Virus record (IMG/VR): IMGVR_UViG_2874945390_000005
DNA length: 23,639 bases
Reading direction: 5' to 3' (one strand)
Source of the DNA: a virus
Taxonomy: Duplodnaviria; Heunggongvirae; Uroviricota; Caudoviricetes
Below, piece after piece: positions 16,477 to 16,758 of the stretch. The notes beneath the pieces were generated by a model. It was not told the DNA's origin. It did no database searches and was given only the letters and a program-made list of their open reading frames with translations. Every line of letters begins with the position of its first letter. Positions within the stretch are counted from its first letter, which is position 1. A program made the position numbers and the translations under genes.

Positions 16477-16758
16477 ATGAACGCATACCTCACCTGCGAC
16501 CGCATAGAGGAGCGTCGCTGGGTTAATCAGCATATTTAGGATGAAAAGGATAAATGGATTGATGATCGGGCGCAGGAGCTTATCAGCATGTTCCCCGATA
16601 AACCATTGCTTATGAGCAGCCTTTTTTTACCCAAAGAAGCCCAACTGGCACTCACTGGCGAAAAAGCTGAAGAGGCGTACAACGATTATATCTCAGCGAT
16701 CGCCTATGCTCGGGCGGAAGAAGAATGGGAGAGAAAATTCTCCCCCTGTCCTTTCTGA
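16477..16758 (+). pseudogene. Gam-like ORF interrupted by an in-frame TAG at codon 21 (16537-16539)
   Basis: ATG at 16477 with CAGGAG upstream; MNAYLTCDRIEERRWVNQHI-TAG-DEKDKWIDDRAQELISMF... stays in frame to TGA at 16756-16758. The N-terminus resembles lambda GamS (MNAYYIQDRLEAQSW...) as recalled. It sits immediately upstream of recT. Confidence 0.35.

Follow-up and report, generated by a model that had tools for sequence, protein, structure and literature searches.

The early-left operon of a prophage that is lambdoid and related to Stx-converting phages includes, directly upstream of recT, a reading frame that begins like the gene of a RecBCD inhibitor and is interrupted at codon 21 by an amber codon. 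The question raised by this locus is whether the frame is a dead gene, a gene whose stop is overcome by the host, or something other than a single gene. We analyzed it within the whole 23,639-nucleotide (23.6-kb) sequence of the IMG/VR record IMGVR_UViG_2874945390_000005, hereafter termed the window, to which all positions refer. An earlier note, made from the letters and their open reading frames alone, had read the locus as a Gam-like gene that was either inactivated by a nonsense mutation or dependent on an amber suppressor of the host. The results obtained indicate that gamL of the window is very probably a nonsense pseudogene of recent origin, located in a Shigella boydii prophage that is in decay, and that its stop is one of several lesions of the recombination (Rec) module.

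Direct reading of the sequence agrees with the layout that had been described. A Shine-Dalgarno-like CAGGAG (16464..16469, plus strand), identical in intact relatives, is separated by a 7-nt spacer from the ATG at 16477. This ATG opens a head of 20 codons, encoding MNAYLTCDRIEERRWVNQHI, which is followed by the premature TAG (16477..16539, plus strand); on read-through, the head corresponds to positions 1–20 of the NCBIfam model NF033500 (phi80_GamL). The amber codon is codon 21 (16537..16539, plus strand). Past it, 72 sense codons continue in the same frame until a TGA at 16756–16758, so that the untranslated remainder of the gene comprises codons 22–93 and the terminal stop (16540..16758, plus strand), and 17 nt separate this TGA from the ATG of recT (16776). 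Upstream of gamL, the operon includes two open frames, also on the plus strand: a kilR-like gene (15951–16163; PF27398 KilR) and a gene for a 93-aa hypothetical protein (16175–16456).

The family to which the frame belongs was established with the conceptual 93-aa product, scored with Gln restored at codon 21. This product matches NF033500 ('host nuclease inhibitor GamL') with 147.9 bits (E = 6.5e-44, cut-off 40), the match spanning model positions 1–88 of 89. The same model recognizes the post-stop part of the gene by itself (110.9 bits, positions 22–88), and the precomputed PF28165 GamL match falls on the C-terminal ORF of the window's gamL. When positions 16300–16900 were compared by megablast with 5,426 complete E. 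coli genomes, 148 genomes matched at 95–99% identity, mostly in O157, O111, O103 and O145 prophages; the annotation of the matched region reads 'gamL: host nuclease inhibitor GamL,' 'hypothetical protein' and 'RecT family recombinase.' In both E2863 and O103:H2 12009, gamL is a 282-bp CDS co-linear with the interrupted frame of the window. The gene is also present in 108 phage records, mostly of Stx-converting phages, and also in Shigella phage Ss-VASD.

With GamL of phi80 and Lula (NF033500, PF28165), the gene of the window shares the sequence family, the length of 93 codons and the place just upstream of recT and exo in the early-left operon. At the DNA level it is 98–99% identical to the gamL genes of Stx-converting phages and of E. 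coli prophages (O103, O111, O145 and O157). Genes for GamL members encode about 92–94 aa and lie immediately in front of those for a RecT-type annealing protein and an exonuclease, and this is the layout found in the window, with its 93 codons, as well as in its relatives. Unlike phi80 GamL, the window copy has an amber codon at position 21 and yields no full protein, and the adjoining recT is split by IS600. A functional GamL gene would have an uninterrupted frame; because of the TAG at codon 21, the locus is filed as a gamL pseudogene and not as a working member of the family.

The name GamL goes back to Rotman et al. (2012), according to PMC12315714. Citing that work, PMC12315714 ascribes the blocking of RecBCD to phi80 GamL, the mechanism of which it terms 'unknown.' The same name is in use for two different proteins: in structural papers it denotes the long, 138-aa isoform of lambda Gam (PMC5218532), whereas NCBIfam, Pfam and PMC12315714 apply it to the phi80/Lula family. 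Automated text or annotation transfer could mix the two up.

The first 20 residues of the frame had been likened in the earlier note to the N-terminus of lambda GamS, and this resemblance is real. BLASTP aligns GamL residues 1–21 without gaps to residues 41–61 of lambda Gam, i.e., to the N-terminus of GamS (pairwise E = 4e-4). Eight of the 20 residues are genuine identities, the ninth identity of the alignment being the Gln that we inserted at position 21. As had been proposed in that note, the stop falls opposite a lambda Gln, namely Gln61, which is Gln21 of GamS. Lambda Gam (GamS; PDB 2UUZ and 5MBV; PF06064) belongs to the same functional class, a RecBCD inhibitor in a Rec module, and has the N-terminal motif MNAY..DR.E...W in common with the GamL of the window, whereas the rest of GamL is unrelated to it at the sequence level; a forced alignment beyond the N-terminus gives about 20% identity. 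The N-terminus, with M1, A3, D8, I10 and E11, is among the best-conserved parts in an alignment of 25 full-length GamL proteins. The Pfam Gam model (PF06064) gives the conceptual product 13.9 bits against a cut-off of 25 (E = 0.064), and matches residues 1–39 only. Because this score is below threshold, membership of lambda's Pfam Gam family was rejected, the agreement in fold and in the N-terminal motif notwithstanding.

For the fold, an AlphaFold2 model of the intact protein of a close relative (P0001) was used and not one of the truncated product. The model (pLDDT 86.8) consists of a long helix comprising residues 3–37, two short helices and a helix comprising residues 62–88, and thus displays the long N-terminal helix and the helical dimerization body of the GamS fold. 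When the model was compared by Foldseek with 350,542 PDB chains, the best match was 5mbv_A, lambda GamS in its complex with RecBCD (TMq 0.72, prob 1.00, E = 0.12), and the second was 2uuz_A, the crystal structure of GamS (TMq 0.65). Weak E-values are to be expected of a helical protein of such small size. Further GamS chains excepted, the remaining matches have TM < 0.4. PMC12315714 describes Gam and GamL as types that are distinct in sequence and alike in their predicted folds. The Gam homology that had been proposed for this gene stands for the N-terminal motif and agrees with the predicted fold, and the assignment by sequence has to be amended: 'Gam-like' is a fair term for function and fold, and the gene belongs to the GamL family, not to Pfam Gam.

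Two GamL proteins, P0046 and P0053, begin with MNAYYAQDRIEAQ, which is near-identical to MNAYYIQDRLEAQ of lambda GamS, while their remainder is GamL-like. Starts of this type hint that the helix entering the RecB channel may be of common ancestry in GamL and Gam, families regarded as non-homologous, or may have been exchanged between them.

We then compared the codons around the stop with those of relatives. Codon 21, TAG in the window, is CAG (Gln) in E2863, in O103:H2 12009 and in all intact relatives examined. Codon 19 (16531..16533, plus strand) is CAT (His) in the window and CAA (Gln) in E2863 and O103:H2 12009, as in most relatives. IMG/VR was scanned with a pattern that left codons 16, 19 and 21 free; 28 contigs were returned, and codon 21 is CAG in 28/28. 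Five of these contigs encode the conceptual protein of the window exactly, with His19 and Gln21, and three further ones have His19/Gln21 and one more substitution. His19 and Gln21 also occur together in proteins P0051 and P0070. Judging from these alleles, His19 is a pre-existing polymorphism and not a lesion. With respect to the 282-bp ORF of the window, the viral contigs L019, L023, L024 and L025 differ by a single base, at nucleotide 61, which is C there and T here. As only this nucleotide differs, the stop is due to one C-to-T transition at 16537 on an existing, otherwise intact allele.

The CAG-to-TAG amber mutation that had been suspected is thereby borne out, and the comparison with related prophages shows that the TAG is not conserved in relatives. 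Across the family the residue at this position is variable, with Q, R, T, S, V, K and others found among the 25 full-length GamL proteins. Deamination at a Dcm site was considered as the origin of the transition and dropped, since the context TTCAGGA is not CCWGG. The gene carries no additional damage downstream of the TAG, which is expected of a recent event and, equally, of a gene that suppression or read-through keeps expressed.

Comparison with Ss-VASD and E2863 revealed further lesions in the module, all of them in features of the plus strand. The 5′ part of recT (codons 1–200 of 316; 16776..17375; Pfam RecT, E = 5.2e-22) aligns to nucleotides 1–602 of intact recT, and the 3′ part (18640..18993) aligns from nucleotide 597 to the end. 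Inside recT, after nucleotide 600–602, lies a 1,264-bp IS600 (17376..18639), which is flanked by a 3-bp target duplication, TAC, at 17373–17375 and 18640–18642, and is 99.8% identical to elements annotated as 'IS3-like element IS600 family transposase.' The following gene, a lambda-exonuclease/YqaJ-type exo (18990..19679), appears intact: it is full-length, matches Pfam YqaJ with E = 7e-28 and has four substitutions relative to E2863. The Rec-module gene located after exo (19679..20219), of unknown function and aligned to a 195-aa gene of E2863, is frameshifted by a 1-nt deletion at 20131/20132. It has also lost its last ~46 nt, homology stopping at 20219 beside an IS3-family element (ORFs 20380–21584, minus strand). 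Counting the amber codon of gamL, at least three to four lesions that inactivate genes independently lie in about 3.8 kb and, recT being split by IS600, the whole Rec module of the prophage is dead.

A second IS600, at 8655–9918, is 100% identical to the copy in recT and adjoins a truncated helicase gene (10263–11378). It has no matching target duplication, the flanking triplets being CTT and TTG, which suggests an IS-mediated deletion or rearrangement and not a simple insertion.

The window contains about six IS elements or fragments, of the IS630/DDE_3 type, of several IS3-family types and of IS600. Two IS3-family transposase gene sets stand back to back, one on the minus strand (5178–6083) and the other, with split ORFs, on the plus strand (6364–7573). 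ORFs with an ORF6N antirepressor domain (1354–2136 and 3837–4262, minus strand) flank an IS630-type DDE_3 transposase ORF (2733–3518); the pair may represent one antirepressor region broken by the IS, or two paralogues. An ORF for a cI-type repressor with HTH and S24 peptidase domains (12579–13337) is still open, so that the early-left operon is presumably silent anyway. Between this repressor and the Rha/KilR/gamL operon lies an apparently intact HicA/HicB toxin–antitoxin pair (13744–14339, minus strand). The equivalent region of Ss-VASD and O103 12009 holds a BsuBI/PstI restriction–modification cassette or Panacea-domain genes.

Two Logan assemblies, of the read sets ERR200293 and DRR015923, and the finished chromosome CP026836.1 all contain an identical 282-bp TAG-bearing sequence with identical flanks. 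The datasets CP026836.1, ERR200293 and DRR015923 were reached by exact look-up of the IS-truncated RecT fragment, the contigs being found again in 2, 3 and 1 samples, respectively. CP026836.1 (GCA_002950135.1) is a 5.1-Mb chromosome, cited as Shigella boydii (PMC12817139). The wider distribution of the allele was studied with a 41-nt probe designed so that no 28-mer seed could match without covering CAT as well as TAG. It matched none of the 5,426 complete E. coli genomes and none of 50,697 phage records; as a positive control, the same probe with the intact CAA/CAG allele matched 120 E. coli genomes. A probe for the immediate-ancestor allele (CAT/CAG) gave no match in the complete E. coli genomes, though this allele occurs in IMG/VR contigs. 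A scan of genome contigs for the locus, with degenerate positions, also gave no match and hence no allele information, probably because Shigella is merged with E. coli in GTDB and the representative genome there lacks the prophage.

These data have to be weighed against readings other than that of a pseudogene. A sequencing or assembly error in an intact gene would leave precisely a single-base difference from intact alleles, but the T at 16537 is found in a finished chromosome as well as in two read sets of independent sequencing and assembly; as three independent datasets have the same TAG, we regard an error as extremely unlikely. Even less credible is the notion of two separate small genes, of 20 aa and of 56–72 aa, with a conserved stop between them. 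Nothing was found in its favor. Every relative examined has one unbroken gene of 92–94 codons in which position 21 is a sense codon, and both the alignment of 25 GamL proteins and the 28 IMG/VR contigs led us to reject this notion. Suppression deserves more attention. Were UAG decoded as Gln, whether by a suppressor tRNA of the supE type or, to a small extent, by tRNA-Gln of the wild type, gamL would function as a conditional or attenuated inhibitor: a supE or near-cognate tRNA-Gln would insert precisely Gln and so yield the product of the intact His19/Gln21 allele of five viral contigs, and nothing else is broken after the TAG. Amber suppressors are, however, uncommon among natural isolates. 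A suppressor tRNA carried by the element itself was rejected, as the 23.6-kb window is without any tRNA gene. In a suppressor-dependent gene one would look for conservation of the stop, but the TAG allele is limited to one lineage (0/5,426 E. coli genomes, 0/50,697 phage records and 0/28 viral contigs), so that the stop is not conserved. Moreover, with the partner recT destroyed by IS600 and another gene of the operon frameshifted, no working module is left for an inhibitor to serve. The presence of these other lesions in the operon makes suppressor dependence unlikely, and taking all of this into account we hold functional gamL by suppression or read-through to be very unlikely. Lambda gam amber mutants (e.g., gam210) provide a parallel: the mutation is nonsense, and the RecBCD inhibitor is lost unless the host has an amber suppressor. 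These mutants were selected in the laboratory in a viable phage, whereas the window allele is a natural one that has become fixed in a Shigella lineage as part of a defective prophage.

The remaining alternative concerns the product that could still be made. In lambda Gam, the N-terminal helix enters the 3′-ssDNA channel of RecB and contributes to the steric block (PMC5218532). In the GamL model, codon 21 lies in the middle of helix 3–37, and translation from the normal start would yield a 20-residue peptide ending inside this long helix. The analogy with lambda Gam, together with the predicted fold, points to an important role for the N-terminal helix of GamL, and loss of function of the window's gamL is the likely consequence of the stop. 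The only plausible restart product would begin at Met38, where an internal AGGAG (16574–16578) precedes, with a 9-nt spacer, the ATG at 16588 of a 56-aa in-frame ORF (AGGAG and ORF together 16574..16758, plus strand). Given this arrangement, some C-terminal fragment could arise, and it might retain some activity, for instance dimerization or partial binding to RecBCD. The fragment scores 72.4 bits on NF033500 and is reported by gene callers, and lambda Gam, which has a long and a short isoform, offers a parallel. This isoform analogy fails, because lambda GamS starts at the equivalent of GamL residue 1. In addition, the AGGAG merely encodes the conserved Gln33-Glu34, and some members of the family have Leu or Thr in place of Met38, which is thus not a conserved start. 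The fragment is devoid of the whole helix 3–37, the part best conserved with lambda GamS and, in lambda, equivalent to the region that enters the RecB channel. Lacking this helix, the 56-residue Met38 product would, by analogy, not be expected to inhibit RecBCD, and the same applies to the 20-residue peptide. We therefore consider an active restart product quite improbable. The 56-aa ORF has been called as a gene with PF28165 GamL by automatic gene callers in three contigs (L003, L004 and L005). In CP026836.1 as in the Logan contigs, pipelines give this remnant the label of a gene with a GamL domain, which is an annotation trap, the ORF being the tail of a pseudogene.

The reading retained is therefore that of a nonsense-inactivated gene. 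A Gam-like RecBCD-inhibitor gene hit by a nonsense mutation upstream of recT, as the earlier note had proposed, is supported by the match to the GamL family, by the CAG codon of relatives and by their gamL annotation. That note had named a lack of homology to Gam, or two small genes with a conserved stop in relatives, as findings that would speak against it; neither was encountered. A C-to-T change at 16537 turned the Gln codon 21 (CAG) into an amber codon (TAG). In the likeliest history, this lesion, the IS600 insertion in recT and the frameshift and IS truncation in the gene after exo would all go back to neutral decay of a repressed, immobilized prophage in an IS-rich Shigella genome.

Damaged copies of gamL are also found in other genomes, with frameshifted or truncated products (P0050, P0051, P0054, P0055, P0070, P0071 and P0072). 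Three of the damaged products show a change from SLFLPKEA to SLFYPKKP, which fits a slip from T7 to T6 in the run of seven T located at 16622–16628 of the window; the remaining ones are truncated or frameshifted at other places. A probe specific for the T6 frameshift detected none in the complete E. coli genomes. The frameshifted products hence come from Logan or draft assemblies, and some of them could be assembly errors. gamL appears to have been independently broken in several lineages. Such losses might not be neutral: a leaky RecBCD inhibitor would be costly because of sensitivity to double-strand breaks, and repeated knock-outs would then be favored across the Enterobacteriaceae. We consider this unlikely, and neutral loss is the reading that we infer for the gamL of the window.

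Pseudogenes and IS-driven decay are well established for Shigella genomes. The gamL locus conforms to that picture, with IS-split, frameshifted and nonsense genes side by side, and nothing sets it apart. The gamL family is already known and annotated, the genome is of the pseudogene-rich kind, and the case is one of ordinary gene decay. For annotation, the locus should read as a gamL pseudogene with an internal stop, and the 56-aa 'GamL' ORF starting at Met38 should not be taken for a functional anti-RecBCD protein. If loss of gamL were under selection, the repeated independent knock-outs would reflect selection against resident RecBCD inhibitors. Beyond its annotation the finding is of little import, the dead Rec module fitting the IS-driven decay already known for Shigella.
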